From a virus (Duplodnaviria > Caudoviricetes): a stretch of 64,000 nucleotides of DNA. Below are positions 14,039-53,780 of the stretch, piece after piece; the stretch's first letter is position 1, and the number at the start of each line of letters is the position of its first letter. The position numbers were made by a program, and so were the translations under genes. The notes beneath the pieces were generated by a model. The model made no database searches. It saw only the letters and a program-made list of their open reading frames with translations, and was not told the DNA's origin. The stretch lies in IMG/VR virus record IMGVR_UViG_3300025575_000011, positions 20,151 through 84,150 of that record; one strand, written 5' to 3'.

Positions 14039-16264
14039 ATGAACAAAGTTACAAAAAGAGATGGCAGAATTATCACATTTGACAAGGACAAAATCACTAA
14101 TGCAATTAAATTAGCAATGATTCGTACAGAAAAGGGTATTGATGAGGCATTAGCTGTTGATATATCAGATAAAGTAAGTAAAATGGACAAAAAAGACATG
14201 AATGTTGAAGAAATTCAAGATTTAGTAGAACTTAAACTAATGGCAAGTGCAAGAAAAGATGTTGCTAAAGAATTTATTACATATAGAAATAAAAGAAGTG
14301 AAGTAAGACAAAAAAATACAGAGTTAAATAAGAAAATTGAGAAAATCCTTCTATGCAGTAACATCCAAAATTCAAATGCCAATGTAGATGAATATTCTTT
14401 TGGTGGAAGAAAGTTTGAAAGTGCAGGATTATTACATAAAGATTTTGCAATGAAGAACTTACTTCGTAGTGGGGTAGCAGAAGCGTTCATTGAAAATAGG
14501 ATTTATATCCATGACTTTGATTCTTATGATATTGGAATGCATAACTGTCTTTTCTCAGATGTTGGTAAACTCTTAGACGAAGGATTTACAACTAGAAATG
14601 GTGATGTTAGAGGAGCAAATTCAATCGGTAGTGCTATGCAATTAGTAGCAGTAATCTTTCAATGTCAGAGTCAGGTACAATTTGGAGGAGTAGGAAGTAT
14701 CCATTTAGATGTTGATCTTGCACCTTCAGTTTCTAAATCATTCTTGAAACTTTTCTGCAAAGGATTATTCTACTTTGATGATATTAAAACTCCAAAAAAG
14801 TTTGTCATTGATGAAGCATTAGATGTAACTTTAGACAATATAAAGTACTTAGAATACAAATATCCAAAAGCAACAAACTACGCTTTATTAGAATTAGATA
14901 AAGAAGGATTGCAAGCAGCACAAGCATTATTCCACAATCTAAACACTCTAGAATCCCGTCCGGGGTCTCAACTACCATTTACCTCAGTTAACTATGGCAG
15001 AGACATTACAACAGAAGGAAGGAAGGTTTCTGAATGGCTGTTACGAGCTAGTGTTGATGGGATTGGTAAGTATCACACAACAAGTATTTTCCCTATTAGC
15101 ATCTTCCAATATAAGAAGGGAATTAATGATGTTGAAGGCACTCCAAATTATAGTTTAAAGAAATTAGCAATCAAATCAATGTGTAAAAGAATTTATCCTA
15201 ATTGGGTTAATGGTGATTTTAGTAACAATATTGAAGATGAAAATGATCCAAATACTTATATGGCTACAATGGGCTGTAGAACAATGATTGGTTCAGATGT
15301 ACATGGGCTAGGATATTCTAAACTTGGAAGGGGAAACATTTCCCCTGTTACAATTAATCTACCAAAACTAGGTATCAAACATGGTATTTGTTTAGGGAAA
15401 ACCGCACCAGACTTAATGGGATTTTGGAAAGAACTTGATGATGTTCTAGAATTAACTACACAAGCACTGGTTGATAGGTTTTATCATATTTGTAATCAAT
15501 CAGTTAAATCTGCACCATTTATGTATAAGAATGGAACAGTTGTAGACTCAGAAAGTGCATTGAAAAATGGCGTATATGAAGCAATGAGACATGGCACTAA
15601 TGCAATTGGATACATTGGAGTTGCAGAAATGTGTCAAGCATTGTTTGGGAATAATCATGCTGAATCAGAAATAGTTAAAGCATTTGCATTAGAAGTAATT
15701 GTACATATGTCAGATCATGCAAAGAAAGCTAGTTCTGAATATAATCTAAACTTTAGTCTTTACGCAACTCCAGCAGAAAACTTATGTAAAACGATGATGT
15801 CAGGACTTAAAAAAGAGTTTGGAGTTATTCCAAATGTCACAGAAAAAGATTATCTTACTAATTCACATCATGTTCCAGTATGGCAGGAGATTTCAATCTT
15901 TGATAAGTTAAAAGTAGAAGCTCCATTCTGTAAATATCCTACTGGTGGTTGTATTACATATGTTGAATTAGACAGTTCAATTATTCATAATGAAGAAGCA
16001 GTTGAGAAGATTATTGATTTTGCAATGACATTAGACATTCCTTACATGGCATTTAACTTTCCTATTGATTCTTGCTTGGATTGTGGTTATCAAAGTGAAT
16101 TTAATGATGCTTGCCCTGTATGCGGAAGTGAAAATATCCAACAACTACGAAGGGTTACAGGATATTTAAGCACAGACTTTAGAAACTTCAATGAAGGGAA
16201 GAAACAAGAAATAAATGATAGGGTAAAGCATTCATTATTTACAGACTTTACAAAGGGTGAATAA
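14039..16264 (+). CDS. nrdD: anaerobic (class III) ribonucleotide reductase with ATP cone
   Basis: VTKRDG ATP cone, MGCRT, CLDC/CPVC Zn site, RRVTGYL glycyl-radical loop. Confidence 0.97.
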   Translation: MNKVTKRDGRIITFDKDKITNAIKLAMIRTEKGIDEALAVDISDKVSKMDKKDMNVEEIQDLVELKLMASARKDVAKEFITYRNKRSEVRQKNTELNKKIEKILLCSNIQNSNANVDEYSFGGRKFESAGLLHKDFAMKNLLRSGVAEAFIENRIYIHDFDSYDIGMHNCLFSDVGKLLDEGFTTRNGDVRGANSIGSAMQLVAVIFQCQSQVQFGGVGSIHLDVDLAPSVSKSFLKLFCKGLFYFDDIKTPKKFVIDEALDVTLDNIKYLEYKYPKATNYALLELDKEGLQAAQALFHNLNTLESRPGSQLPFTSVNYGRDITTEGRKVSEWLLRASVDGIGKYHTTSIFPISIFQYKKGINDVEGTPNYSLKKLAIKSMCKRIYPNWVNGDFSNNIEDENDPNTYMATMGCRTMIGSDVHGLGYSKLGRGNISPVTINLPKLGIKHGICLGKTAPDLMGFWKELDDVLELTTQALVDRFYHICNQSVKSAPFMYKNGTVVDSESALKNGVYEAMRHGTNAIGYIGVAEMCQALFGNNHAESEIVKAFALEVIVHMSDHAKKASSEYNLNFSLYATPAENLCKTMMSGLKKEFGVIPNVTEKDYLTNSHHVPVWQEISIFDKLKVEAPFCKYPTGGCITYVELDSSIIHNEEAVEKIIDFAMTLDIPYMAFNFPIDSCLDCGYQSEFNDACPVCGSENIQQLRRVTGYLSTDFRNFNEGKKQEINDRVKHSLFTDFTKGE

Positions 16265-24272: not shown

Positions 24273-24318
24273 ATAGGTAGTGGTAAGTATGATTATTTTG
24301 AGAGGAGGGTTAGAATTT

Positions 24319-25776
24319 ATGTTGGTTACTAAAGAAGTTGAAGTGGGATTATCCTCAATAAATACTAAATACTATGAAAAATTAGGATATAAGATACCAA
24401 GGAGAATAGATAAATATGGAATAAATTGTGTTAAAAGAGGAACAAAAATTAGAGTAAAAACGCAAGATTTACAAGATAGGTGTAATTCGTTAGTTGATGT
24501 TATATGTGATGGATGTGAAAAAACATTAAATATAAAATGGAGTGACTATAAAAGAAGTGTAAAAGAAAATGGAGAATGTTATTGCTTTAAGTGTGGTAAT
24601 GCAGGGCATAAGAAATGGGTTAGTTTCTATGAGTGGTGTTACCTTAATTTATCTAAAGAAGATGCTGATAGGATATTATCTCGTTGGGACTATGATTTAA
24701 ATGGAATAAACCCTATTGATGTTACCTATAGTTCTAAAGGGCTAAATGGAAAAGGATATTGGTTTAAATGTTTGACATATCATGAGCATGGATCAGAGTT
24801 AAGAGACATTAGTAATTTTACAAGTGGTGAAGTGGGGAGTATTTGTTGCACCAAATGTAACAAAATTGCAGTCACCAATCCTGATTTGGTAGATTTTTTT
24901 GTTGATAAGGAAGATGTATTAAAATATTCAAGTGGCTCCGAAAAATCCACTTTGATTAGATGCCCTGAATGTGAATTTCAAAATAAAAGAATTATTAAAA
25001 ATTTTATACGATATGGAATTAATTGTCCTAAATGTTCCGACGGAGTACCATATCCTGAAAAATTTATGTTTAGCGTTCTATGTCAACTAGATATAATATT
25101 TAAAACTCAGTTATCTAAATCTACTTTTGAATGGTGTGGTAAATACCAGTATGATAACTTTATTTCAGAAATAAATTGCATAATCGAGACTCATGGGTTA
25201 CAGCATTATGAAGAGAATGCTAATTGGAAAATGTCATTAGATAAAACGCAAGAGAATGATAAATTAAAGGAACAAAATGCTAAAGATAATAACATAGGGA
25301 ATTATATAGTTTTAGATTGCAGGTATTCTCAACTAGAATGGATTAAAAATAGTATAATGCACAGCGAGATTCCACGGTTATTAAACTTCAAAGAAGAAGA
25401 TATTAATTGGCTACAATGCTCTGAATATGCTTGCAAAAACATGGTCAAGGAGGCATGTAATTTGTGGAATTCTGGAATCAATAAAACAATAATAATAGCA
25501 GATAAATTAAGGATTAGTAGAGCAACTGTATTAAGATACTTAAAACAAGGTGCAGAACTAAAGTGGTGCAAATATATTAATCACAGTAAAGTAATATGCC
25601 TAACTACAAATGAAATTTTCAATACACAAACAGAAGCGTCTAGAAAATATAATATGTATAGTAGCAGTGATATTGCTCAATGTTGCAGACACAATAGACC
25701 ATTTTCAGGTAAACATCCAGACACGGGAGAGAAACTTGTGTGGATGTATTATGGAGAGTATCTATCTATAACTTAA
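24319..25776 (+). CDS. free-standing Zn-ribbon / Vsr-like PD-(D/E)XK endonuclease with C-terminal NUMOD-like HTH
   Basis: multiple CxxC, YDNFI..CIIETHGLQHY, VICLTTNEIF...CC...WMY; paralog of 52263..53744. Confidence 0.7.
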   Translation: MLVTKEVEVGLSSINTKYYEKLGYKIPRRIDKYGINCVKRGTKIRVKTQDLQDRCNSLVDVICDGCEKTLNIKWSDYKRSVKENGECYCFKCGNAGHKKWVSFYEWCYLNLSKEDADRILSRWDYDLNGINPIDVTYSSKGLNGKGYWFKCLTYHEHGSELRDISNFTSGEVGSICCTKCNKIAVTNPDLVDFFVDKEDVLKYSSGSEKSTLIRCPECEFQNKRIIKNFIRYGINCPKCSDGVPYPEKFMFSVLCQLDIIFKTQLSKSTFEWCGKYQYDNFISEINCIIETHGLQHYEENANWKMSLDKTQENDKLKEQNAKDNNIGNYIVLDCRYSQLEWIKNSIMHSEIPRLLNFKEEDINWLQCSEYACKNMVKEACNLWNSGINKTIIIADKLRISRATVLRYLKQGAELKWCKYINHSKVICLTTNEIFNTQTEASRKYNMYSSSDIAQCCRHNRPFSGKHPDTGEKLVWMYYGEYLSIT

Positions 25777-29191: not shown

Positions 29192-30094
29192 TTGTCCATG
29201 TTGTTCTGGGATTGCGGAAACAGCTATGGAAAAGCACGAGACTCTAAAGGAAGAGAATTAAAAATCCTATCAGTAATAGGCAAAGCACAAGAAACTTTTA
29301 CAGAAAAACAACTATGGCAAATTGATGGAAATTATATCGGTGAAGATGCAATTTTACATGGTTATGCTCAAGATTATTCCCTTGATGAAATCAAAACAGA
29401 ACAATCTACATTTAAAACATTAACAAAATATGCTTTATGTAATTACAAAGGTGAGAATAAAATCGTTTTCTTGTTTCCATTTGAATCTTATTTCAGTGAA
29501 AAGAAACAAATTGTAGAAATGTTTTCAAGAAATATGGATATTGCTTATAAAATAGGAAATACTACTTACAATTATAATTTTAAACCTGAACTTATACGCT
29601 CACTTCCGCAAGGATACTGTGCAGGAATGGATTATTTTCTTGATGATGAAGGTAAAATAAAAGAAGAAATCCCAAATACAGTTTTAATAATTGATGTAGG
29701 AATGGGAACTGTAAACTATATTTATTTACTCAGAGGAGAAATTGTTAGGGAAATGTCTCATACAACTAATAATGGAATGCATCAGATTTATAAAAGAGGA
29801 CTTCAAGGCAAAAAAATATATGAAGTTGATTTATTCAATGGTTTTAATTCAGTAGCTCATTTATATCCAGATCAAGCAACATTAATTAAGAGTGATATTT
29901 CAACTTATTACGAGTTAAAAAAATTAGATCAAATAGTTGTTGTAGGTGGAGGAGGGGAAGCAATATATCATTTCTTGCCTTGGACAAATAAGGTTTTGCA
30001 CAAAGGACAATTTTCTAATGTTAGAGGTGCAAGTAAGGTGGTGCAAAATTTATCATGGGGGAAATCAGAACATTTAGAGATGATGATGTCTTAA
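29192..30094 (+). CDS. ParM/StbA-like actin-family ATPase
   Basis: DCGNSYGK, IIDVGMGTVN, VVVGGGG actin-fold motifs. Confidence 0.85.
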   Translation: MSMLFWDCGNSYGKARDSKGRELKILSVIGKAQETFTEKQLWQIDGNYIGEDAILHGYAQDYSLDEIKTEQSTFKTLTKYALCNYKGENKIVFLFPFESYFSEKKQIVEMFSRNMDIAYKIGNTTYNYNFKPELIRSLPQGYCAGMDYFLDDEGKIKEEIPNTVLIIDVGMGTVNYIYLLRGEIVREMSHTTNNGMHQIYKRGLQGKKIYEVDLFNGFNSVAHLYPDQATLIKSDISTYYELKKLDQIVVVGGGGEAIYHFLPWTNKVLHKGQFSNVRGASKVVQNLSWGKSEHLEMMMS

Positions 30095-30285
30095 AACCTT
30101 TGTTAGATACAATTCCTAGAAGAAAGATGGGTAAGATAATTAGGAGAGCGTTGTATGATTATTTTTTCAAGGGAAAAGATATAGTAATGGCAGAGGATGA
30201 GGATTGTTATATAGAAGTGGTTGAGGTTGAAGAGGTTAAAATTAAACCAGTAAAAGAAATTAAATTTGATATGTTTGAAGATTAG
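30055..30285 (+). CDS. ParR-like RHH adaptor
   Basis: overlaps the ParM 3' end; TFRDDD.L...KIIRRALYDYF with acidic tail. Confidence 0.6.
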   Translation: MGEIRTFRDDDVLKPLLDTIPRRKMGKIIRRALYDYFFKGKDIVMAEDEDCYIEVVEVEEVKIKPVKEIKFDMFED

Positions 30286-30569: not shown

Positions 30570-30812
30570 ATGTTAAGCAAAGTAGAAATTGATATTCTAA
30601 TGCATCTGAAAAGTGAGGGATTAGTTGATGCTATGAACAGCAGAACCATTAAAAACGTCAGTATTTCAATTGATCTCAATCTCTTTCGTACACGCAATAA
30701 TTTGTATCACTTGCAATTGTTAGGAATGGTTGGACTTGGATTTAAGGAGATTCGGTCAAACACTTATTATTTGACACAGAAAGGGATTGATGAAATTGAG
30801 AAAATTGGGTGA
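30570..30812 (+). CDS. winged-helix DNA-binding protein
   Basis: helix-helix-wing pattern ending YYLTQKG. Confidence 0.6.
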   Translation: MLSKVEIDILMHLKSEGLVDAMNSRTIKNVSISIDLNLFRTRNNLYHLQLLGMVGLGFKEIRSNTYYLTQKGIDEIEKIG

Positions 30813-31578: not shown

Positions 31579-31860
31579 ATGGAAGCAGAGTTTACAGACT
31601 TTAGAGAGAATACTAATTGGGTTAATGGAATAGTCGGAGACAACATTAGTTTCAGTGCTAAATTATACAATGAACCTTCAAAATATTGCTTAAATGGAGG
31701 AAGAGTCAGTAATATGTTTATGTACAAAGGTCATGTTTGTATCTTTAATTACAATTATGATGATCATAGTGATGGTATTGAGATTAATGAAGAGAATGTG
31801 GAGTATTTTGAATGTGTTATGGAATTGTTAGAAAATAGTCCAGAAAGAGATTTTGATTAG
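31579..31860 (+). CDS. hypothetical protein, paralog 1
   Basis: MEA.FT...NWV.G....F.AKL....SKY...GGR.S shared with the next ORF. Confidence 0.7.
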   Translation: MEAEFTDFRENTNWVNGIVGDNISFSAKLYNEPSKYCLNGGRVSNMFMYKGHVCIFNYNYDDHSDGIEINEENVEYFECVMELLENSPERDFD

Positions 31861-31871
31861 GAGGAATTGAT

Positions 31872-32141
31872 ATGGAAGCAATTTTCACAAGATTTGATAA
31901 CGAAGACAATTGGGTTCAGGGTGAATGTGGCGGATTTAGTTTTGACGCTAAACTGTTCAATACTGGTTCAAAGTATGGAATTGATGGTGGAAGAATATCA
32001 AAATTATGCATTCAAAATCAATATGGAATGATGGCAAATTTTGATCGAGGATGGGATATTGAACCTCCAGAGGAGCATATGGATTACTATTTAGCTATTG
32101 TTGATTTGTTGGAGAATAGTGATGTTAGGAATTTTGGGTAA
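31872..32141 (+). CDS. hypothetical protein, paralog 2
   Basis: tandem paralog of 31579..31860. Confidence 0.7.
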   Translation: MEAIFTRFDNEDNWVQGECGGFSFDAKLFNTGSKYGIDGGRISKLCIQNQYGMMANFDRGWDIEPPEEHMDYYLAIVDLLENSDVRNFG

Positions 32142-32179
32142 GGGTTAAGTTAGGATTAAAATTTGAGGAGGATGAGATT

Positions 32180-32284
32180 ATGAATGTTTCACTATTGTTT
32201 CTTCTTAAAGTAGTTTTATATTCAGGTGCAATTATCATTGTTACCAAAGCAGTACGATATGTATATAAAGAGGAGGAAAGTTAA
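32180..32284 (+). CDS. 34 aa single-TM protein
   Basis: own translation MNVSLLFLLKVVLYSGAIIIVTKAVRYVYKEEES; GAGGAGG RBS. Confidence 0.55.
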   Translation: MNVSLLFLLKVVLYSGAIIIVTKAVRYVYKEEES

Positions 32285-32538
32285 TGAAAATCATTGGATT
32301 TTATCACAATCCTAAATTAATCAATAGTTGTAAGGTTGTAATTCCACAAGTTCTTAAAGGTTTAATGGTTATGGGATTCACTTTTACCTTTACAGATGAC
32401 GCTGTATCACTATTAGCCCCTTATATTGATATTAATGGAATTTACCAATGTACTAATCATGGTGTGATTGATGGAAATTTAGTTAAACATCTATACCAAG
32501 CAGTAAATGATTCAATGTCGCATAATTTAATTAAGTAG
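32284..32538 (+). CDS. hypothetical protein
   Basis: 84 aa, TAATG-coupled to the previous ORF. Confidence 0.6.
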   Translation: MKIIGFYHNPKLINSCKVVIPQVLKGLMVMGFTFTFTDDAVSLLAPYIDINGIYQCTNHGVIDGNLVKHLYQAVNDSMSHNLIK

Positions 32539-32550
32539 AAGGGAGAAATT

Positions 32551-32697
32551 ATGCAAAATTTATTATTAGTTCTTAATATCACTTCATATGTAGTTTTGAT
32601 CTTCTGTGGCATTCAAGCAATGAAATTTGTGTATGGGGTTCAAGCAATCAAAATTGTATATTCAATTTTCAAAAGTCAAAAATTATCTGTTAAATAA
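32551..32697 (+). CDS. 48 aa membrane protein
   Basis: own translation MQNLLLVLNITSYVVLIFCGIQAMK...; AAGGGAG RBS. Confidence 0.55.
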   Translation: MQNLLLVLNITSYVVLIFCGIQAMKFVYGVQAIKIVYSIFKSQKLSVK

Positions 32698-32711
32698 GAG
32701 GAGGAATTAGC

Positions 32712-32924
32712 GTGAGAAGGCTAATCAACAAAAAATTAGTAGTAAGTGCAACATGTTTAGTTGGTGGATATTTAATAATGCAAATAAACGAGGGTGCTTA
32801 TGTTGAATCATGGTTGTTTTACAAAATGGTTGCAGAGTTATTAGGGTTTGCAGTTTTTAGTATTGGACTAATTGGTGTCTTGGGGATTGGAGTTAAATCA
32901 GGGATTAAAGGATTGAAAGGTTAA
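32712..32924 (+). CDS. two-TM membrane protein
   Basis: two hydrophobic stretches; GAGGAGG RBS, GTG start. Confidence 0.6.
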   Translation: MRRLINKKLVVSATCLVGGYLIMQINEGAYVESWLFYKMVAELLGFAVFSIGLIGVLGIGVKSGIKGLKG

Positions 32925-32949
32925 TTAAATTAAGAGGAGTGTGTAAATT

Positions 32950-33123
32950 ATGTATCAAGAAATTGCTCAGATTCTAGCCATAATTGCCATAACTATTGTA
33001 GGTATATATCCTCTATTATCAAAGAGAACTAAGCCTCCAATGTGGTATATAAAAGGTACTTTAGGGATATCCGCAGTTTATACAATCGGAATAGTTGCCA
33101 TTGTAAAACTAGGTTTAAACTAA
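32950..33123 (+). CDS. 57 aa two-TM membrane protein
   Basis: own translation MYQEIAQILAIIAITIVGIYPLL...KLGLN; GAGGAG RBS. Confidence 0.55.
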   Translation: MYQEIAQILAIIAITIVGIYPLLSKRTKPPMWYIKGTLGISAVYTIGIVAIVKLGLN

Positions 33124-33257
33124 AGAAAACCAAAAAAATACCCCTCAAATGAGGGGATTGGGAAAAGGGTATAATCATTCTTAGATTTTCTTCACATACA
33201 TGCGTATGCAAATAAATATGCGTGGGGTATCTAAATTATGCCAGTACGTTTAGTACT

Positions 33258-33353
33258 TTATTTCAAAAGACTTGATGCAATATTTGCCAATTGGATTACG
33301 CTATACCCTGTAATTCCTAAACCAGTTAAGATCATTCCAATTCCTAAAAACAT
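33258..33353 (-). CDS. 31 aa hydrophobic peptide
   Basis: own translation MFLGIGMILTGLGITGYSVIQLANIASSLLK; GAAAGAAGG RBS. Confidence 0.45.
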   Translation of the reverse strand: MFLGIGMILTGLGITGYSVIQLANIASSLLK

Positions 33354-33474
33354 ATTAAAACCTTCTTTCAATTTTTATTTTATTTCTCTTTAGTCGGTTT
33401 TGAATTTCTTGCTTACGACCATAATTGTAGTATCACCCATTTCAAAAATTATATACATGAAAGGAGAAAAAATT

Positions 33475-33597
33475 ATGATGAAAACTTTAGAAACAATTTT
33501 AAACATTATTTCTTATGGGTTTTTAGTGACAATTGGGATTGTTATTATCAGAATTGGGATGAAGGTTACTGGATTTAAAATCTTCGGCAAGAGATAA
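33475..33597 (+). CDS. 40 aa single-TM protein
   Basis: MMKTLETILNIISYGFLVTIGIVIIRIG...; AAGGAG RBS. Confidence 0.55.
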   Translation: MMKTLETILNIISYGFLVTIGIVIIRIGMKVTGFKIFGKR

Positions 33598-33617
33598 AGT
33601 TTAAAGGAGGAATATAC

Positions 33618-33848
33618 ATGTTAGTTGAACCATTTCACACCAGTGTATATCCCATATTAGTTCAAATAGCAATGGTGATGGTTTTGTACTCTGTGTGTGT
33701 TCTCGGCTACACGCAAATACGAAGACCAGACGTTGCTCAGATGGTAGAAAAATTAAGAGGGTTATTGTTCGGTTTTCTATTAGTTAAGTGTTCTTACCTT
33801 ATTGTAATGTTTATTAATAACACTATTGATAAAATTGTAATTAAATGA
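33618..33848 (+). CDS. two-TM protein (pilin/VirB2-like topology)
   Basis: 76 aa, two TM segments separated by a short basic loop. Confidence 0.55.
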   Translation: MLVEPFHTSVYPILVQIAMVMVLYSVCVLGYTQIRRPDVAQMVEKLRGLLFGFLLVKCSYLIVMFINNTIDKIVIK

Positions 33849-33859
33849 GGTGACATTTT

Positions 33860-34213
33860 ATGGCTGGATTCTTTAGTGACATAACTGTAAATCCTTTTAT
33901 TCCGAATCCCGCTTTTGCTAAACCAGAGGAAGCTAATTTTATAGAGAAAGGAATTTCTAATGGAATAGAAAAGGGGTTGGGGAACGTTGGTGACAAGGTT
34001 CTCCAAGCAGGAAAAGTTAAGACAGAATCAATGATGCACAATCTACCTGAAATTGCGACTCTAGCATTGGTTATGTATCTCATATATTTAGGGTATATGT
34101 CTTTCATTAGGAAGGATGGACGCAAAAGAGAAATTGATTTCTCAAGAATGTATGTAGTTTTTATGGTCTATATTGTCTTCAAGTTATTCTGGAAGGTAGT
34201 ATTAAAAATCTAG
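33860..34213 (+). CDS. membrane protein with two C-terminal TMs
   Basis: 117 aa; GAGGTG RBS. Confidence 0.6.
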   Translation: MAGFFSDITVNPFIPNPAFAKPEEANFIEKGISNGIEKGLGNVGDKVLQAGKVKTESMMHNLPEIATLALVMYLIYLGYMSFIRKDGRKREIDFSRMYVVFMVYIVFKLFWKVVLKI

Positions 34214-34242
34214 TTCATTAAATTAAGAGGAGAGTGTTAATT

Positions 34243-34347
34243 ATGATTAAAAATTTATTAAAAGGTTTAGGTTTATTGGCAATATTTTATGTAGGAATCT
34301 TAACCATAAATGGATTCTTAGAAAAGGTAATCACAAATATCAAATAA
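34243..34347 (+). CDS. 34 aa single-TM protein
   Basis: own translation MIKNLLKGLGLLAIFYVGILTINGFLEKVITNIK. Confidence 0.5.
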   Translation: MIKNLLKGLGLLAIFYVGILTINGFLEKVITNIK

Positions 34348-34359
34348 GGAGGATTTAAA

Positions 34360-36756
34360 ATGCAACAAAAAGCATTAATCAACTTTAGAAAAAGAGAGAT
34401 CCTTCCAACAAAACTTAAAAGAGAAACCTTTGGATACAAAGCATACTCTATTACGCCCTCTCGTTTTATCGAGAGTGGCGAGGCACTTAAACAAATCTTA
34501 GATACTGCAAGTGCAATTCATGAAGGAATGTTTAAATATGATTACCTTAATAAATCATTTGTAATAAACCAATCAAGTCCTATTTATTATGAAGTTTTAT
34601 ATGAAGGCAAAAATATTTCATTCAATTATATCATACCCGATAAATATACAGAGGTATTAGTAAATAAAATTGATCGTGTATTTCGTGTGGCTGCGGTAAA
34701 GGAACTAGAAGAAGATTATTTCCATAATTTTGTAAATAAATATTATTGTACTTTTGCACAGAAAAAACATTTTATGTTTTCATTAAATACTAATGCAGAT
34801 GATAGTTTATTAGAAAATTTATTGTCAGTTATAAATTCAGTCCAACCTGACGATAAAGTTTTACTTCAAGTTGCATTAAATCCCCTTAATGAAAAATGGA
34901 AAGAAGATTGGGCTAAAGCAAACATTAAACGTAAAAATGGGGAAGAACTGGCAGTTCATCCTAGTAAAGCAATTTCTGTTATTGAAAGCATAATGGGTAC
35001 TGTTGAAAATGCTCTAGATTTAGTAGACATAATTGTTGGAGTAGATAAGAAAGAAAAAGAAGCATATTCAAAAAAGGAAAAGCAAATTGATAGTTGGGGA
35101 GGGAATATGTATCGCAATGCCAATCTGACAAAACAAAAGATAAATGGAAATGGATTTGAATGTCAGATTAGACTTTATTGCACTAGTGAAGAAAGGACAA
35201 GATACTATCAAAAGATATTCTCAGGAGTTTTTAAGGTGTTGGATGCAGAGCAAGAGTTGGAATTTACTACAATAGGAAAACATAAGAGCAAGGATAGAGA
35301 ATTTGAAGGGCATTTAACTAGTAAGAATGTATTTTCTACGAAAGAGATCATGCCATTCTTGAGATTACCCAATCGCAAAATGCAGGGAGACTTCAAGGAG
35401 AGTATGAAAGCAATTCAAATTACTGAGGTTCCTATACCAGAGGAATTATTAAATGGAGAAATTCCTATAGGAGAAGCATCATATAAGGAAAATAAATTTA
35501 TAGCTTATTGGAACACGAGAAACAAAGATATTGCTGCAATGCACAAAATATTAGCTGGTATGCAAAGAGCAGGTAAAACAAACTACCTAATACACTTTGC
35601 AATAAAATCTATGAAAGCAGGTCAATCAGTTTTTGTAATTGACAGCATTAAAAATTGTGAACTAGCCGATGCAATAAGAGATCACCTGCCACCAGAATTC
35701 CATCATAAAATTATTGTATTGGATTATAGTAATCTAGACTATCTACTTTCATTAGCATGGAGTGAACTCAGAAAACATCAAGGAGAAACAGACAAGAAGC
35801 ACAGAATGATGTTAGCAAGTCAAATTGCAGGAAATCTTGAATCATTTATTGAGAGCGTTGGAGCAGGATCAGTTCAAGAGAAATTTAGTGCACGAATGAA
35901 ACGATTCTTAGCATGTGCAGCAAAGCTAGTTTTATCACAAGAAGGAACGAATATTAAAGATGTTTTAGATGTGCTTCAAGAGAGGGATATTAGAGATGAA
36001 TTTATTGAAAGATCAGGTTTGCCTGAATCAAATATTATTGTTCAAGAATTAAGAAGATTAGACGACCCTAAAACTGAAGGGACAAGATATGATTTAATAG
36101 GAGGAATTATAGACAGAGCATCAATAATGACAAATGATTACCTTATGGAATTGTTGCTTAGTGTAAAACCCAATGATGAGATTGACTTTAGATATTGGGC
36201 TGATAATGGATACTGTGTGTTAATTAAAGTTTCCGAACTTAAAGTAAGCAGAACTGCTCTAAGACCTTTGGTTTCATTTATCTATTCAAAATTATGGTTG
36301 AGTATGTTTTCTAGAGGAGAACAAAAAAGTCCTAGAATCACAAATGTAATACTTGATGAGATCCACAACTTCCCAGAGGTATGTAATATGATCAAGGGAA
36401 ATTGTCGTGAATCGGCTAAATACGGATTAAGTTATGTTTTTACTAGCCATATGCTCACAGACCTTAAAGGATTGTTACCAATTATTAAAGGGTCTGGTGC
36501 TAGTTTTATGTTATTTAAAACCACTAAAGAGAATTTGAGGTTATTGGAAGAAGAATTAATGCAAGGTGGAATTACGATAGAAGAAGCTCTGGAACTTAAA
36601 AAATTCCACACTATTAACATCGTCAATTATGATAGGGAATATGCAGTATTTACAACGAAAGCACCTGATTTAATAGACAAGTGTTATAAACTCATTGATA
36701 GAAGTCATATAGATTTAGAATGTAGTATGAAATATGGGAGTCCTTTTGAAGATTAG
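34360..36756 (+). CDS. large FtsK/HerA/VirB4-superfamily P-loop ATPase
   Basis: Walker A AGMQRAGKT, VFVIDS, Walker B VILDEIHNF, RESAKYGLSYVFTSH. Confidence 0.75.
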   Translation: MQQKALINFRKREILPTKLKRETFGYKAYSITPSRFIESGEALKQILDTASAIHEGMFKYDYLNKSFVINQSSPIYYEVLYEGKNISFNYIIPDKYTEVLVNKIDRVFRVAAVKELEEDYFHNFVNKYYCTFAQKKHFMFSLNTNADDSLLENLLSVINSVQPDDKVLLQVALNPLNEKWKEDWAKANIKRKNGEELAVHPSKAISVIESIMGTVENALDLVDIIVGVDKKEKEAYSKKEKQIDSWGGNMYRNANLTKQKINGNGFECQIRLYCTSEERTRYYQKIFSGVFKVLDAEQELEFTTIGKHKSKDREFEGHLTSKNVFSTKEIMPFLRLPNRKMQGDFKESMKAIQITEVPIPEELLNGEIPIGEASYKENKFIAYWNTRNKDIAAMHKILAGMQRAGKTNYLIHFAIKSMKAGQSVFVIDSIKNCELADAIRDHLPPEFHHKIIVLDYSNLDYLLSLAWSELRKHQGETDKKHRMMLASQIAGNLESFIESVGAGSVQEKFSARMKRFLACAAKLVLSQEGTNIKDVLDVLQERDIRDEFIERSGLPESNIIVQELRRLDDPKTEGTRYDLIGGIIDRASIMTNDYLMELLLSVKPNDEIDFRYWADNGYCVLIKVSELKVSRTALRPLVSFIYSKLWLSMFSRGEQKSPRITNVILDEIHNFPEVCNMIKGNCRESAKYGLSYVFTSHMLTDLKGLLPIIKGSGASFMLFKTTKENLRLLEEELMQGGITIEEALELKKFHTINIVNYDREYAVFTTKAPDLIDKCYKLIDRSHIDLECSMKYGSPFED

Positions 36757-36767
36757 GAGGGAGTTAA

Positions 36768-37307
36768 ATGAAAAGTATTACGGATTTTCGTATTACTACA
36801 AATTGGCATGAGGTTGATAACTTTCATGCCTCTCCCCATTCAGGTTTAGATTTGGCCTGTGTTACTGGGACAAAAATTTATTCCCAAGATTCAGGGACAA
36901 TCTCTCTTACAATTGATCAATGGTTGGGTAATACTGTACGTTTAAAGCTCGATGATGGTAGGATTATAGTATATGGACACTTGAGTAAGATAAACGTCAC
37001 ACAAGGGCAACGTGTGGGTGTCAATGAACTTTTAGCTGAAACAGGAGGTGCTGTGGGCAGTCCAAACAGCGGAAGAACAACTGCTGAACATTTGCATGTG
37101 AGCGAGTACAGTTTTGATGGCACTACTTTAATTGACCCAACTAATTATCTATTCCATCATGAGTTGGTTGCCCAAAGTAATTCAAGTCCATTTTTAGTCC
37201 CTACCATGCTTATTCTATTATTTATTATCTTTTTTAAGTTCCGAAAGTTTTTTATATATGGATTTGGAATATGTGCTATTCTAGGAATTATTTTTATCGC
37301 TTCATAA
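36768..37307 (+). CDS. M23 peptidase with C-terminal TM anchor
   Basis: HSGLD, YGHL, HLH zinc motifs; two hydrophobic C-terminal segments. Confidence 0.88.
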   Translation: MKSITDFRITTNWHEVDNFHASPHSGLDLACVTGTKIYSQDSGTISLTIDQWLGNTVRLKLDDGRIIVYGHLSKINVTQGQRVGVNELLAETGGAVGSPNSGRTTAEHLHVSEYSFDGTTLIDPTNYLFHHELVAQSNSSPFLVPTMLILLFIIFFKFRKFFIYGFGICAILGIIFIAS

Positions 37308-37920: not shown

Positions 37921-39288
37921 TTGATTTATATGGAATTAGTGCCAAAAATAGAATTTTTAATGGAGGGTATGAACATGAGTAGAAAGAATAAAGCACAAGA
38001 AGAAACTGCATCTAGTTCTGAAATGGAGAATGACAGTATTTGGGATAAAGGTACTAGGGATGGTTCAGAAGAACACGAGAACACTGAAGAAAATGCAATG
38101 CCTAAGTTAATGAGTTTGAGCGAAAAGACAAAAATGGAAGAGCAAGAAACTGAATCAGATAGTCAAGAGAAAAATGAAAAACAATTAAAAGCAGAAGCAA
38201 AGTTAAAACGAGAAGAGAATAAAATGTTTAAGGAATTAACTAAACAAGACAATAAAGAATGGGAATTTGAGAATGTTTATCCAGTTTATCGTAATGGAAA
38301 AATTCATAAATGGATGACTACTTTAACTTCTGAGAGGATTAATGATCTTTTCAAATCCGGGGTAATTTACTATGATTACGAGATCCAAAGAGGCTACCGT
38401 AAAAATATACAAGGAGAAAAGAGACCCCTTATAACAAACCGTCACGTAGACGATATCTTAAAACCTATGCAATCTGGGAAAATTGCAGGAGGTGCTTTGA
38501 CTTTCTGTTACTTTAAAGAGTATGAAGAAGAGTTGGAGTATAATGAGGAAGAAAATACTTTAAAAGTAAACAACAGATTAGCTGTGGTAGATGGTGGTCA
38601 CAGGGTTTTCAGTTGCATCAAGATGGTCAAATTAAATAAAAAGGACAAATCTAATCCAAATCCTGCATTATTTGAATATCCCGTGTTTTTAGAATTTTTG
38701 TCAAGGGAAGAAGCTATGGCATTGTTCAGTGAATACGCAAACGCAGGAAAGAAAATTGGGAAAAATAAAGCAGAAGCATTAAATGTTTTCGACCCTTCGC
38801 ATGATATGGCAAAAGAAATTATTATTAATTCAGAACTACACAATAAGATAGAAACAATAAGTTCTAATCCTAAAGAAAACAATATCATGCTTTTTAGCAC
38901 ACTTATGAACGGTATTAGAATTTTTAAACCACAGACCCAAAAGGATTCAGACCAAATTGTCGAATTCCTATCAAAGTTCTGGTCTGAATTGATTTATCTA
39001 TTTAAAGATCAAATGGGTAATATGGAATTCAAACAGCGGAGGGAAATTCGGAAACAGACATTTTTGCTTGAACCGATGTTTCTTAATGGATTCTTCCATG
39101 TAGCTAAATATCTAATGGATAATCCTGAAAATTGGGTTGAGAAACTAAGTAAATTAAAAGATGATAAAATTTTCTTCTCAAGAGACAATAAACTTTGGCT
39201 AAATATTCTCAGAGAAGGTGGGAAGACAATCCACACAAGTCTTACGCAAACCTTCGTAATTGATGAAATGGTCAATAAAGTAAAGTAA
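37921..39288 (+). CDS. DGQHR/DndB-like (ParB/Srx-fold) protein with acidic N-terminus
   Basis: YDYEIQRG, LAVVDGGHR, LFSEYAN; true start probably 37969. Confidence 0.65.
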   Translation: MIYMELVPKIEFLMEGMNMSRKNKAQEETASSSEMENDSIWDKGTRDGSEEHENTEENAMPKLMSLSEKTKMEEQETESDSQEKNEKQLKAEAKLKREENKMFKELTKQDNKEWEFENVYPVYRNGKIHKWMTTLTSERINDLFKSGVIYYDYEIQRGYRKNIQGEKRPLITNRHVDDILKPMQSGKIAGGALTFCYFKEYEEELEYNEEENTLKVNNRLAVVDGGHRVFSCIKMVKLNKKDKSNPNPALFEYPVFLEFLSREEAMALFSEYANAGKKIGKNKAEALNVFDPSHDMAKEIIINSELHNKIETISSNPKENNIMLFSTLMNGIRIFKPQTQKDSDQIVEFLSKFWSELIYLFKDQMGNMEFKQRREIRKQTFLLEPMFLNGFFHVAKYLMDNPENWVEKLSKLKDDKIFFSRDNKLWLNILREGGKTIHTSLTQTFVIDEMVNKVK

Positions 39289-52262: not shown

Positions 52263-53744
52263 TTATTTAACCTCCGTATTGTTTATTATATATTCGTCAT
52301 AATACATCCAAGTTAACTTCTCGCTAGTCTCGGGATGTTTCCCAGCATATTTTTTTACATTCGTACAACAAGCAGATATACTACTAGCACTTTTTAAATT
52401 ATATTGTTTTGTTGCATTAATTATGGAATTAAATATTTCCCCTGTAGTTAAACAAATTATTTTTTTATTATTTTTAATATTACTTTCTTTTTTGGAGTCG
52501 TAATCACACCAATCCAATTTAGCACCTTGTTTCAAATATTTTACAGCCGTAGTTCTATCTATTTTTAATTCCAATGCTATTTTATTTGTGTTATTAATTC
52601 CATTTTTCCATAAATTACATGCAACATTAACTAGACTAGAACAAGAAATTTCATGACATTTTAGCCAGTCTATATCTGATTCTTTAAAGTTTAAAAGAGT
52701 AGGTAGCTCGCTTTTCATTATGCTAGTTTTAATCCACTCTAAATTAGAAATTCTACAATCTATAACTATATAATTTTTAATACCATTCTCTTTAGCAAGC
52801 TGTTCTTTATTTTTGTCATTCTCTTGGGTTTTCTTTAATGAATCCCAATTCCCATTAGGTTCTATGTAATGCTGTTCCCCGTGAGTTTCAATGACACAAT
52901 ATATATTATTTATGTAGAAATCATATTTATAGTTACTACACCAATCAAAGCTAGTTTTAGTTAATTGTGTTTTGAAATTTGATTTTAGTTGCTCTAAAAA
53001 ATTAAATGTAAATTTCTCTGGGTAGCTTATTCCATCTCCACATCTAGAACAATTAAAATGACTTAATACAAAATCGTAAATTGATTTTTCTTTTTCATAA
53101 CCACATTCAGGACATTTAGTAAGAATTTTTTTATTTGACCCTTTTGAAAATTTGTATGCATCATCTTTATTAGCTAAATATTTTACTATTTCAGGGTGCG
53201 TTATTGATAATGAATTACATTGGTTGCAGTCAATACTTCTATTATAACCTTTTGTAAAACTTGCAATGTTCTTTTGCTCTGATTCATGTTCTGGATGTTC
53301 TAAACATTTAAACCAATAACCTTTTCTATTAAACCCCTCCGAGCCAAGTCCTATGTTTTTAGGGTTTATAACTTCGCCATTTTTATCAATATTTAAATTA
53401 AAATCCCAACGAAGCATTATTATATCTGCTATTTCTTTGGGAAGATTGGCATAGCACCATTCATAAAATGATACCCATTTTTTATAACCATTACGAGCAC
53501 ATTTTTGGCAATAGTATTCTCCGTTTTCCTGCGCACATCTTTTATAATCATTCCATATAATGTTTTTTAATTCTTTTCTGCAACCATCACATTGAATATT
53601 TACCAGTATATTAGAACCATCGGATAGATCTTTTACATTTACCTCAAATTCGTTACCTATCTTAGTAAACAGATACCCCTTATTTATATACCATGTTTTG
53701 TTTCTTATTTGCCATTTTATAATTATACTTTTGGTTTCCAACAT
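52263..53744 (-). CDS. free-standing Zn-ribbon / Vsr-like endonuclease (paralog of 24319..25776)
   Basis: YDFYI..VIETHGEQHY, CxxC ribbons, IICLTTGEIF; likely start 53744. Confidence 0.7.
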   Translation of the reverse strand: MLETKSIIIKWQIRNKTWYINKGYLFTKIGNEFEVNVKDLSDGSNILVNIQCDGCRKELKNIIWNDYKRCAQENGEYYCQKCARNGYKKWVSFYEWCYANLPKEIADIIMLRWDFNLNIDKNGEVINPKNIGLGSEGFNRKGYWFKCLEHPEHESEQKNIASFTKGYNRSIDCNQCNSLSITHPEIVKYLANKDDAYKFSKGSNKKILTKCPECGYEKEKSIYDFVLSHFNCSRCGDGISYPEKFTFNFLEQLKSNFKTQLTKTSFDWCSNYKYDFYINNIYCVIETHGEQHYIEPNGNWDSLKKTQENDKNKEQLAKENGIKNYIVIDCRISNLEWIKTSIMKSELPTLLNFKESDIDWLKCHEISCSSLVNVACNLWKNGINNTNKIALELKIDRTTAVKYLKQGAKLDWCDYDSKKESNIKNNKKIICLTTGEIFNSIINATKQYNLKSASSISACCTNVKKYAGKHPETSEKLTWMYYDEYIINNTEVK

Positions 53745-53780
53745 ATTTAAACAACTCCTCATTAAATAACCGTTTGTATT

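Follow-up and report, generated by a model that had tools for sequence, protein, structure and literature searches.

The genes at positions 32180-37307 of the window, the whole 64,000-nucleotide stretch of viral DNA that we analysed, have in our judgement an even chance of being a phage-plasmid's version of a widespread accessory module, carried by phages and plasmids of endospore-forming Firmicutes and forming a reduced type IV secretion inner-membrane core. This core would consist of a soluble ATPase of full VirB4 architecture and small hairpin membrane proteins at the VirB2 and VirB3 positions. The core module is already known from the Bacillus phages SPP1 and SPO1, and orf200-207 of 0305phi8-36 are further known members. 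In SPP1, gp32 and gp31.1/31.2, which are early-expressed and non-essential, have been proposed to form a trans-membrane translocon (PMC6316719), and a 'DNA translocation operon' has been described for 0305phi8-36 and SPO1 (PMC3357382). A phage translocon made of an ATPase and its membrane neighbours was thus already published, and the minimal translocation channel proposed in the initial annotation of this DNA is not new; what stands of that proposal is the type-IV-secretion-type motor and its linkage to membrane proteins, and what does not is the grouping of the micro-ORFs and the M23 peptidase into one unit.

A soluble ATPase of VirB4 architecture

The 798-aa ATPase (34360..36756, + strand) has no transmembrane (TM) segment and is soluble. 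It was initially described as a P-loop ATPase; residues G405 and K406 of Walker A and D666 and E667 of Walker B are invariant. It matches phrog_5156 (9.5e-111), SPO1 gp27.4 (1e-36, tblastn) and SPP1 gp32 (22% identity, 7e-23 over residues 26-798, BLASTP), and it is a member of the family of SPP1 gp32, SPO1 gp27.4 and 0305phi8-36 orf201. A library of 1.84 billion proteins contains 3936 cluster representatives related to it, and the best 150 listed are mostly full length.

Its class, which had been left between VirB4, HerA and FtsK, comes out as VirB4 for both domains by fold. The N-terminal domain (approximately residues 20-350, DUF8128) has the fold of the VirB4 N-terminal domain, the C-terminal domain (approximately 350-790) is a VirB4/VirD4-type motor, and the top seven Foldseek matches are all TrwK. 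We regard the family, the VirB4-type folds of both domains and the intact ATPase motifs as established, and a type-IV-secretion-type motor of VirB4 architecture as supported. No match was obtained with the VirB4 Pfam models, and by sequence the motor is closer to TrwB (1.7e-5) than to VirB4 (0.022), which counts against our preferred explanation.

Three small membrane-protein genes form the conserved core

All ORFs listed for the region are present on the + strand, in a compact run with Shine-Dalgarno sites. Between 32100 and 34400, all five GGAGG motifs sit 8-20 nt 5' of a listed start codon, as do nearly all the weaker Shine-Dalgarno-like motifs, and the intergenic gaps of the run measure 11-26 nt, the 34-aa and 84-aa ORFs sharing 1 base; the earlier observation of co-directional ORFs with strong ribosome-binding sites is confirmed. 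A Kyte-Doolittle scan of the nine small ORFs gave one TM segment for the 34-, 48- and 40-aa ORFs and the 34/37-aa ORF, one to two for the 70-aa ORF, two for the 57-, 76- and 117-aa ORFs (both C-terminal in the last) and none for the 84-aa ORF. Eight are hydrophobic, in line with the eight tiny TM proteins first counted, but they do not form a continuous run: a 351-nt gap carries a gene on the other strand, with its own terminator-like site, for a 31-aa hydrophobic peptide rich in glycine (33141..33353, - strand; coding 33261-33353, stop codon 33258-33260, terminator hairpin 33141-33156). This gene is kept at the same place in all eight loci compared and is called as a gene in L005-L008.

Of the tiny ORFs, just three recur in all 11 related loci, which contradicts the idea of eight TM proteins and an M23 peptidase as one conserved unit. 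They encode a 40-aa single-TM protein (33475..33597, +), a 76-aa two-helix hairpin protein (33618..33848, +) and a 117-aa protein with a C-terminal two-helix hairpin (33860..34213, +), and in the close clade they stand in this order before the ATPase gene in the 11 loci. The first had been listed as a 65-aa ORF with a TTG start; we rejected this call, as the gene most likely starts at 33475, giving 40 aa, a Shine-Dalgarno fit and agreement with the relatives. The 57-aa two-helix hairpin protein (32950..33123, +) has copies in three related loci, 61% identical. Four ORFs upstream (34, 84, 48 and 70 aa; 32180..32924, +), which have no family matches, and a 34-aa single-TM ORF (34243..34347, +, with a Shine-Dalgarno site before ATG 34243; 37 aa if read from GTG at 34234) have no counterpart in the 11 related loci. 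These five window-only ORFs are putative genes, called from Shine-Dalgarno sites and tight spacing, and the upstream 34-70-aa tiny ORFs are lineage-specific additions outside the core.

The 76-aa protein (39-88% identity across 11 loci) sits where distant relatives have their VirB2/TrbC-like propilin, but it has no leader peptide. Comparison with the pilin-like group gave no significant homology (hhalign probability 8% or less), and its embedding neighbours CedA1 (0.86), DUF3852 and T4SS_pilin all score below 0.9 and are leads only. The 117-aa protein, in which about 60 conserved N-terminal residues form a soluble region ahead of the hairpin, occurs in 50 clusters of the database, one of them labelled Clostridium sp.; it has no family match. 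In relatives it adjoins the ATPase, at the VirB3 position, its gene ending 12-20 nt 5' of the ATPase gene; in the window alone the 34/37-aa ORF is inserted between the two. Neither protein has significant sequence homology to VirB2-/VirB3-type proteins or to the distant pilin-like partners, which is a further point against our preferred explanation.

A membrane-anchored M23 peptidase in the window clade

The gene for a 179-aa M23 metallopeptidase (36768..37307, +) begins 11 nt beyond the stop codon of the ATPase gene and has a GGAGG site of its own. The protein matches Pfam Peptidase_M23 (2.1e-16) and the M23 structure 9gy1 in the PDB (1.6e-14). The HxxxD motif, the YGH histidine and HxH are kept in seven of seven copies, as is a C-terminal TM-KFRK-TM hairpin, so that the peptidase with C-terminal TMs of the first description is upheld. 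For the clade, an intact, co-oriented and tightly spaced M23 gene is established, and the presence of a wall hydrolase is in keeping with how Gram-positive secretion systems are built. No signal peptide was found in the 179 residues, and the positive-inside rule predicts a catalytic domain outside the cell; export of the 140-aa N-terminal domain is then unexplained, a point against our preferred explanation. The same observation, made by sequence inspection, would suit a dedicated protein exporter, in which the ATPase and the hairpin proteins export leaderless proteins, here the M23 domain, and VirB4-type systems also secrete proteins. We give this the slimmest of chances: the cargo would be missing from most of the ATPase family, and there is no sign of recognition signals.

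The peptidase is clade-specific. It is present in seven of eight close relatives, missing in a 54%-identical relative (L007/L008) and absent from every distant lineage examined (SPO1, SPP1, 035JT001, TPDSL_ph2 and Clostridium plasmids). That a close relative can do without it also weighs against our preferred explanation. The ATPase thus occurs in relatives without M23, a pattern that had been named beforehand as speaking against the channel; when the conservation of the operon was surveyed, the ATPase was always accompanied by small membrane-protein genes, but not always by M23. Hence the locus might not be one machine: the ATPase and two or three partners would be one unit, and M23 and the upstream micro-ORFs unrelated neighbours, for example lysis accessories or holin-like or toxin-like peptides. 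The patchy M23, the five window-only ORFs and the opposite-strand gene and terminator that divide the run point this way. We nevertheless hold it to be quite unlikely, given the close spacing of M23 to the ATPase gene, its own strong Shine-Dalgarno site and a membrane hairpin unusually conserved among the close relatives that have it.

Distribution and neighbours of the module

Each of the 13 lineages examined has small membrane-protein genes, one to three of them, immediately 5' of the ATPase gene, and this constant linkage we regard as established. The usual order, VirB2/TrbC-like propilin, two-helix protein, ATPase, mirrors virB2-virB3-virB4. In distant lineages the order is a ribbon-helix-helix-like protein, a protein of about 120-140 aa that has two helices and a signal peptide, a 68-105-aa two-TM protein and finally the ATPase, where start and stop codons overlap. 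Three of their propilin-like proteins match TrbC/VirB2 at 4e-6 to 4e-5, just below the Pfam cut-off, and the Clostridium plasmid copies bear the RefSeq label 'TrbC/VirB2 family protein'.

Upstream of the run lies a gene for a 300-aa actin-like ParM/Alp protein (29192..30094, +), which matches Pfam ALP_N (6.4e-7) and MreB-like_C (2.9e-6), the partition protein family phrog_691 and SPO1 gp27.9 (27% identity, E 1e-9), itself an ALP_N match at 2.2e-27. A 76-aa small basic protein encoded at its 3' side (30055..30285, +; four related loci) has no Pfam match; from its position, and because small proteins of ribbon-helix-helix-like type precede the module in other lineages, we infer a ParR/ribbon-helix-helix-like adaptor. 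Downstream of the module, in the window as in all close relatives, is a DndB/DGQHR-like gene (37921..39288, +; phrog_5732 2.1e-32; TIGR03187 DGQHR 3.7e-11, under the family cut-off), whose homologues in L005, L007 and L008 match PF14072 DndB.

Three independent tblastn searches of 50,697 phage records returned 121, 146 and 107 records. Apart from one weak Microcystis match, all host genera are endospore-formers (Bacillus, Geobacillus, Lysinibacillus, Brevibacillus, Alicyclobacillus, Clostridium and Terrisporobacter), and plasmid matches came from Clostridium, Bacillus, Alicyclobacillus, Laceyella and Thermoactinomyces. The phage-record and plasmid searches gave no matches in Staphylococcus, Listeria, Enterococcus, Streptococcus or Lactococcus, whose phages and plasmids are well sampled. 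An actin-like gene precedes the module in the window clade, SPO1, L019 and L032; in L031 it is a TubZ-like gene. One or the other is adjacent in 5-6 of the 13 lineages. Both the host pattern and this adjacency would be expected if the module, with the actin-like segregation system, placed or pumped the genome into the forespore for spore survival. Such sporulation-linked delivery is in our view unlikely: the two-domain architecture of the ATPase occurs also in Saccharimonadota and Chloroflexota proteins, an early vegetative promoter drives the module genes of SPP1 (PMC6316719), and the host pattern could stem from genes moving between phages whose hosts are related.

A conjugation-like, virion-free transfer of the phage-plasmid from cell to cell through a minimal mating channel, as Pathria et al. 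(2012) proposed for 0305phi8-36 (PMC3357382), would accord with the type IV secretion ancestry (the VirB4 fold and the relatives' VirB2-like neighbours) and with the wall hydrolase. The lack of a visible relaxase, coupling protein or VirB6-like protein, remarked on at first, extends to the whole 84-kb record (~51% complete), which contains no Replic_Relax match, no VirB6-/VirB8-like channel or coupling protein and no other ORF of at least 100 aa with two or more TM segments. This lack counts against the reduced core that we prefer as well as against conjugation-like transfer. As the module is moreover found in the strictly lytic SPO1 and SPP1, and 46 of 54 carrier plasmids are typed non-mobilizable, we consider such transfer very unlikely.

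A possible mechanism

In the reduced type IV secretion core that we prefer, a hexamer of the ATPase would use its VirB4-like N-terminal domain to dock on the portion of the 117-aa protein that lies in the cytoplasm, as VirB4 docks on VirB3. ATP hydrolysis would then drive the extraction of 76-aa hairpin subunits, perhaps of the 40-aa protein too, from the membrane, and these subunits would then build up a short conduit or a fibre resembling a pilus. The membrane-anchored M23 would open the peptidoglycan locally. DNA is our favoured guess for the cargo, because other lineages have added a ribbon-helix-helix protein and a Replic_Relax relaxase and because the module often lies beside actin- or tubulin-type DNA segregation genes. 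A deletion mutant of 0305phi8-36 had no detectable growth defect (PMC3357382), and an SPP1 inversion that interrupts ORF 31.2 and deprives gene 32 of its promoter showed neither gene to be essential (PMC6316719); both results tell against the core having this role. The complex could instead block or hijack competing DNA, from superinfecting phages or conjugative plasmids, or alter the envelope early in infection. To such an exclusion or competition device we give the same low credence as to conjugation-like transfer, since described defence systems are unmatched beyond a generic P-loop match, and a VirB4-type N-terminal domain with pilin-like partners suggests assembly or translocation, not sensing.

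Comparison with known systems

The ATPase shares the two-domain architecture, both domains by fold, with VirB4 (TrwK of R388 and VirB4 of Thermoanaerobacter), and the relatives' order of small pilin-like protein, small two-TM protein and ATPase is that of virB2-virB3-virB4, but of the remaining type IV secretion components, some ten in number, none is present in the window. Unlike the type IV coupling proteins (TrwB, VirD4, DotL), the ATPase lacks an N-terminal membrane anchor and carries in its stead a large N-terminal domain of VirB4 type; the locus also has no relaxase. The archaeal Ced system, a reduced type IV secretion derivative that imports DNA in Crenarchaeota, comprises the pilin-like proteins CedA1/A2, the VirB4-like ATPase CedB and the polytopic, VirB6-like CedA. 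Small VirB2-like membrane proteins with one VirB4-like ATPase are common to Ced and the module, a likeness of composition rather than of demonstrated homology, and the polytopic CedA sets Ced apart. In 0305phi8-36 (orf200-207) and SPO1 (gp27.3-27.9), the same ATPase family occurs with an actin-like gene upstream and tiny TM proteins in between; a Replic_Relax/MobC-like relaxase downstream (gp27.3, Replic_Relax 2.9e-12) and orf203, reported as VirB6-like (PMC3357382), have no equivalent in the window, which has the M23 peptidase and the DndB-like gene instead. SPP1 gp31/gp31.1/gp31.2/gp32 (Godinho et al. 2018) differ in that gp31.1 is propilin-like with a leader, whereas the 76-aa protein is leaderless, and in having no M23, adjacent actin-like gene, extra micro-ORFs or opposite-strand peptide gene. 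Otherwise the two loci are alike: gp32 is a full-length, likewise TM-free homologue of the ATPase, small membrane proteins with coupled start codons lie directly upstream in both, and gp31.2 has the soluble N-terminus and C-terminal hairpin of the 117-aa protein.

Results

A run of small membrane-protein genes, an ATPase and a peptidase on a phage-plasmid

The IMG/VR record amounts to 84,150 bases with a G+C content of about 31% and is judged about 51% complete; the window covers its bases 20151–84150. A DnaB-like helicase, a large DNA polymerase and tail proteins are encoded on the window, together with an anaerobic ribonucleotide reductase of the NrdD type (14039–16264, + strand; phrog_487, 1.1e-189), which indicates a strictly or facultatively anaerobic host. 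Plasmid-type functions, ParA and an actin-like ParM/Alp protein, are also present. Given its phage genes, ParA/ParM, low G+C and anaerobic reductase, the element is therefore a large phage-plasmid whose host is an anaerobic Firmicute of low G+C. Among the homologues of module proteins, one carries the label 'Clostridium sp.', and no near-identical DNA was found in the phage and plasmid collections. The window also holds two paralogues of about 498 aa on opposite strands, some 27 kb apart (24280–25776, + strand; 52263–53762, − strand), both matching HNH/homing-endonuclease PHROGs (phrog_4538, 559 and 9084).

The + strand between 32180 and 37307 contains nine small ORFs, one ORF of 798 aa (34360–36756) and one of 179 aa (36768–37307). 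All GGAGG motifs within 32100–34400 are placed 8–20 nt 5' of a module start codon, and the module genes are spaced by 11–26 nt, the 34- and 84-aa ORFs sharing one base. All small products except that of the 84-aa ORF are hydrophobic (eight of nine), each being predicted to form one or two helices. A gap of 351 nt (33124–33474) breaks up the run, and in it the opposite strand encodes a glycine-rich hydrophobic peptide of 31 aa followed by its own terminator-like hairpin (33141–33353, − strand), found at the same spot in 8/8 related loci compared; by analogy with type I toxin layouts, this gene could specify a small membrane toxin or regulator. Immediately 5' of the module lie two adjacent paralogues of 93 aa (31579–31860, + strand) and 89 aa (31872–32141, + strand), with DUF7678 matches of 7.9e-10 and 1.5e-23; one copy of the pair is 85% identical in the related locus L014.

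We scored the conservation of the small ORFs in eight to eleven related loci whose ATPases are 45–70% identical. The 40-, 76- and 117-aa ORFs are conserved in 11/11 loci and the 57-aa ORF in three, while the 34-, 84-, 48- and 70-aa ORFs, as well as the 34/37-aa ORF wedged 5' of the ATPase, have a counterpart in none. Hence, the operon of eight membrane proteins described in the initial annotation is borne out in its ORFs, ribosome-binding sites and hydrophobicity, but not as a conserved unit, because conservation across related loci reduces it to a core of three small genes plus variable additions. NCBIfam returned no match for the small proteins or the ATPase, a word-based homologue search with the 76-aa protein recovered close relatives alone, and embedding searches with the small proteins gave scores that were all below 0.9 and serve as leads only.

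The ATPase has a VirB4 architecture

Firstly, we placed the 798-aa ATPase in a known family. It matches phrog_5156 over residues 21–795 (9.5e-111) and aligns over its full length with SPP1 gp32 (BLASTP, 7e-23); SPO1 gp27.4 was reached by tblastn (1e-36). Pfam detected no domain above threshold on the window ATPase, for which, as for its relatives, the precomputed assignment is PF26449 (DUF8128). It has all the traits of the gp32/gp27.4/orf201 family: about 800 aa, absence of a transmembrane segment (no hydrophobic segment was detected in the protein), an N-terminal DUF8128 and a C-terminal P-loop motor. In an alignment of 53 sequences with a mean identity of 27%, the Walker A (G405, K406) and Walker B (D666, E667) residues are invariant.

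Secondly, we compared a full-length AlphaFold model (pLDDT 78.8) with known structures. The top Foldseek matches were TrwK/VirB4 across the whole length and TrwB across the C-terminal half, and the model displays the VirB4 succession of a VirB4-type N-terminal domain and a RecA-like motor with a helical insertion. On the strength of these matches of the predicted structure, the ATPase has a complete VirB4 architecture, in which DUF8128 is the VirB4-type N-terminal domain. Of the classes VirB4, HerA and FtsK between which the initial annotation had proposed to choose, structure supports VirB4; FtsK traits are absent.

Thirdly, we examined the sequence level. No Pfam match to the VirB4 models (CagE_TrbE_VirB, AAA_10) was obtained for the window ATPase, AAA_10 was matched by one of the 53 relatives (0.0029), and phmmer against PDB sequences found nothing. 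The family profile scored TrwB at 1.7e-5 versus 0.022 for VirB4 (4ag5 sequence), and 12/53 relatives show a weak TrwB_AAD_bind match; the motor is slightly nearer TrwB by sequence, which accounts for the 'VirD4/TrwB-like' labels in public records.

A gene resembling DndB/DGQHR lies 3' of the module in all close relatives. A rival, less likely reading is that the module excludes competing DNA. The P-loop region of the ATPase matches PADLOC mad8 (5.2e-7). That match is weak, partial and generic, and the PADLOC defence models yielded nothing further for the ATPase, the M23 peptidase or the DndB-like protein.

The usual gene order of the neighbours resembles virB2-virB3-virB4

Small membrane-protein genes are found directly 5' of the ATPase gene in every lineage opened (the window clade, SPO1, SPP1, LY5, 035JT001, TPDSL_ph2, pCLJ, a C. 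tetani plasmid, the Romboutsia locus L018, the metagenome-assembled L019 and L031–L033), and stop and start codons often overlap. An ATPase devoid of such genes, the case that would have spoken against the proposed membrane complex, occurs in none of them. A less likely reading, that unrelated genes lie side by side, would sit well with the additions lacking counterparts.

The commonest order is a ribbon-helix-helix-like DNA binder of 50–95 aa (recognized by inspection only), a protein of 118–140 aa with two hydrophobic helices and a signal peptide ending in an Ala-x-Ala-like site, a two-helix protein of 68–105 aa and the ATPase. Three second-position proteins reached Pfam TrbC/VirB2 (4.4e-6, 1.5e-5 and 3.8e-5) with 24–27 bits, below the Pfam cut-off of 27.9, and RefSeq names the second-position copies of Clostridium plasmids 'TrbC/VirB2 family protein'. 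This commonest order mirrors that of virB2-virB3-virB4.

At the equivalent positions, the window clade has a 76-aa hairpin protein without a leader and the 117-aa protein, which shares with SPP1 gp31.2 a layout of soluble N-terminus and hairpin. Searches with the 76- and 117-aa proteins against VirB2/VirB3-type families gave no match, and hhalign comparisons of the 40-, 76- and 117-aa families with the distant pilin-like and VirB3-position groups gave non-significant probabilities of 0.1–8%. By position and topology, we infer that the 76- and 117-aa proteins correspond to the distant partners. Within the record itself, the T4SS_pilin and TrbC HMMs found no match, nor did SpoIIIAC/AD (PF06686) at E up to 10.

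Conjugation-like spread is another rival, less likely reading of the module. SPO1 gp27.3, encoded beside the ATPase homologue, matches Replic_Relax (2.9e-12); no such match was found at E up to 1 in the window's own record, which is about 51% complete. The 84-kb record, at that completeness, has no further ORF of at least 100 aa with two or more transmembrane segments and hence no VirB6-like candidate. Over its whole length, the Replic_Relax and transmembrane searches therefore uphold the earlier statement that neither a relaxase nor a VirB6-like protein is visible.

The M23 peptidase is an accessory of one clade

The 179-aa product is a LytM-type M23 peptidase (Pfam Peptidase_M23, 2.1e-16, above cut-off; PDB 9gy1, 1.6e-14), in which HxxxD, YGH and HxH are kept in 7/7 clade copies and the C-terminal TM-KFRK-TM hairpin is strikingly conserved. 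Judged by the positive-inside rule, the catalytic domain would lie outside and the basic loop in the cytoplasm, an unusual arrangement. The gene starts 11 nt past the ATPase stop. The peptidase has no signal peptide, as would suit the less likely reading that the module exports the leaderless M23 domain. The gene is missing from the related loci L007/L008, whose ATPase is 54% identical, and from all distant lineages. The M23 peptidase therefore is a clade-specific accessory rather than a defining part of the module, and its status as a fixed component does not stand.

In Bacillus phage vB_BceS_LY5 (OP646176.1), a product encoded next to the ATPase is labelled 'Peptidase family M23'. We considered it as an independent link and rejected it, the product being a two-TM protein of 116 aa under an apparently shifted annotation. 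At the same locus (L036, 2558–5705), the ATPase is mislabelled 'Arc/Mnt/CopG DNA-binding protein'.

Cytomotive genes accompany the module in several lineages

An actin-like Alp gene lies 5' of the module in the window clade, SPO1, L019 and L032, and likewise in 0305phi8-36 (PMC3357382). SPO1 gp27.9 (ALP_N, 2.2e-27) is 27% identical to the window actin-like protein (E 1e-9). In L031, a locus of another lineage, a TubZ-like tubulin takes the place of the actin-like gene. After parM/parR, the window encodes an 80-aa protein (30570–30812, + strand) conserved in 10 related loci, whose homologue in L005 has a winged-helix HTH_45 Pfam match, and which is 33% identical (E 7e-9) to a small gene beside the TubZ-like tubulin of L031 (3009–3245, − strand). 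From these sequence relationships, the 80-aa protein is a candidate TubR-like centromere binder within an actin-type partition locus.

The family is large and centred on endospore formers

In a library of 1.84 billion proteins clustered at 50% identity, the ATPase family accounts for 3936 cluster representatives. By tblastn, the window ATPase matched 121 phage and 54 plasmid records; phage records numbered 146 with SPO1 gp27.4 and 107 with SPP1 gp32 as queries, the three queries being divergent members of the family. Carriers include SPO1 (gp27.4), 0305phi8-36 (orf201), phage G, SP-10, D6E and large plasmids of C. botulinum, C. sporogenes and C. tetani. A search of genome contigs gave 3 loci, and a search of 401 genomes of one phylum yielded 14 matches, roughly 4 being full-length. 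Large C. botulinum/C. sporogenes plasmids (pCLJ and others) carry the pair of TrbC-like protein and ATPase, and most are non-mobilizable according to MOB-suite.

Hosts in all three tblastn searches belong to endospore-forming genera, save one weak Microcystis match; the plasmid matches fall in Clostridium, Bacillus, Alicyclobacillus, Laceyella and Thermoactinomyces. Structure-based neighbours of the same architecture, on the other hand, were found in Saccharimonadota and Chloroflexota. The host range hints at a role in sporulation without proving it; delivery to the forespore, one such role, is a less likely reading.

Discussion

Both the module and the idea of a translocon have appeared in print before. 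The term 'DNA translocation operon' was applied by Pathria et al. 2012 to orf200-207 of 0305phi8-36 and to gp27.3-27.9 of SPO1; the operon encodes a MobC-like relaxase, an MreB-like and a VirB6-like protein and a VirD4-like ATPase that has no transmembrane anchor, and its deletion left laboratory growth unaffected (PMC3357382). Godinho et al. 2018 reported that SPP1 gp32 is early, non-essential and resembles TrwB, VirB4 and FtsK (PMC6316719). With the idea in print and deletions silent in the laboratory, our finding is therefore not a new system. New here are the VirB4 N-terminal fold predicted for the previously unannotated half of the ATPase (DUF8128) and the virB2-virB3-like layout of its usual neighbours. 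With these two results, the label 'VirD4-like ATPase of unknown role' gives way to a definite hypothesis, namely that the module is a minimal VirB2/3/4 core. The family is large and present in model phages (SPP1, SPO1) and in C. botulinum, C. sporogenes and C. tetani plasmids.

That the locus belongs to the gp32/gp27.4 module, and that this module is a reduced VirB2/3/4-type core, is very probable. On function, the likeliest single reading, to which we give an about even chance, is that the module would build a conduit or fibre that is anchored in the membrane and driven by ATP, and that in the window clade the M23 peptidase would open the wall locally. DNA is the favoured cargo because of the links to relaxase, ribbon-helix-helix and segregation genes. 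A bolder proposal is that a VirB2/VirB3/VirB4-only apparatus, fed by actin- or tubulin-like segregation and aided by M23 in the window clade, moves phage or plasmid DNA virion-free into the forespore or a neighbouring cell. We consider this improbable; if true, such a virion-free mover would explain the restriction to endospore-forming hosts among sequenced phages and plasmids.

Compared with known systems, the ATPase shares with the coupling proteins VirD4/TrwB the fold of nucleotide-binding domain plus all-alpha domain. Coupling proteins nevertheless have an N-terminal transmembrane anchor, of which the window ATPase is devoid, and work with an adjacent relaxase, whereas the window record is without Replic_Relax. 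FtsK/SpoIIIE are characterized by an N-terminal membrane domain and by the FtsK alpha/beta motor as best structural match, and the window ATPase has neither. Set against a full type IV secretion system with VirB6, VirB8, a VirB1-type hydrolase and others, the 84-kb record, about 51% complete, offers a hydrolase alone, the M23 peptidase. The locus in the window stands as a natural variant of the module that carries a wall hydrolase and no relaxase.
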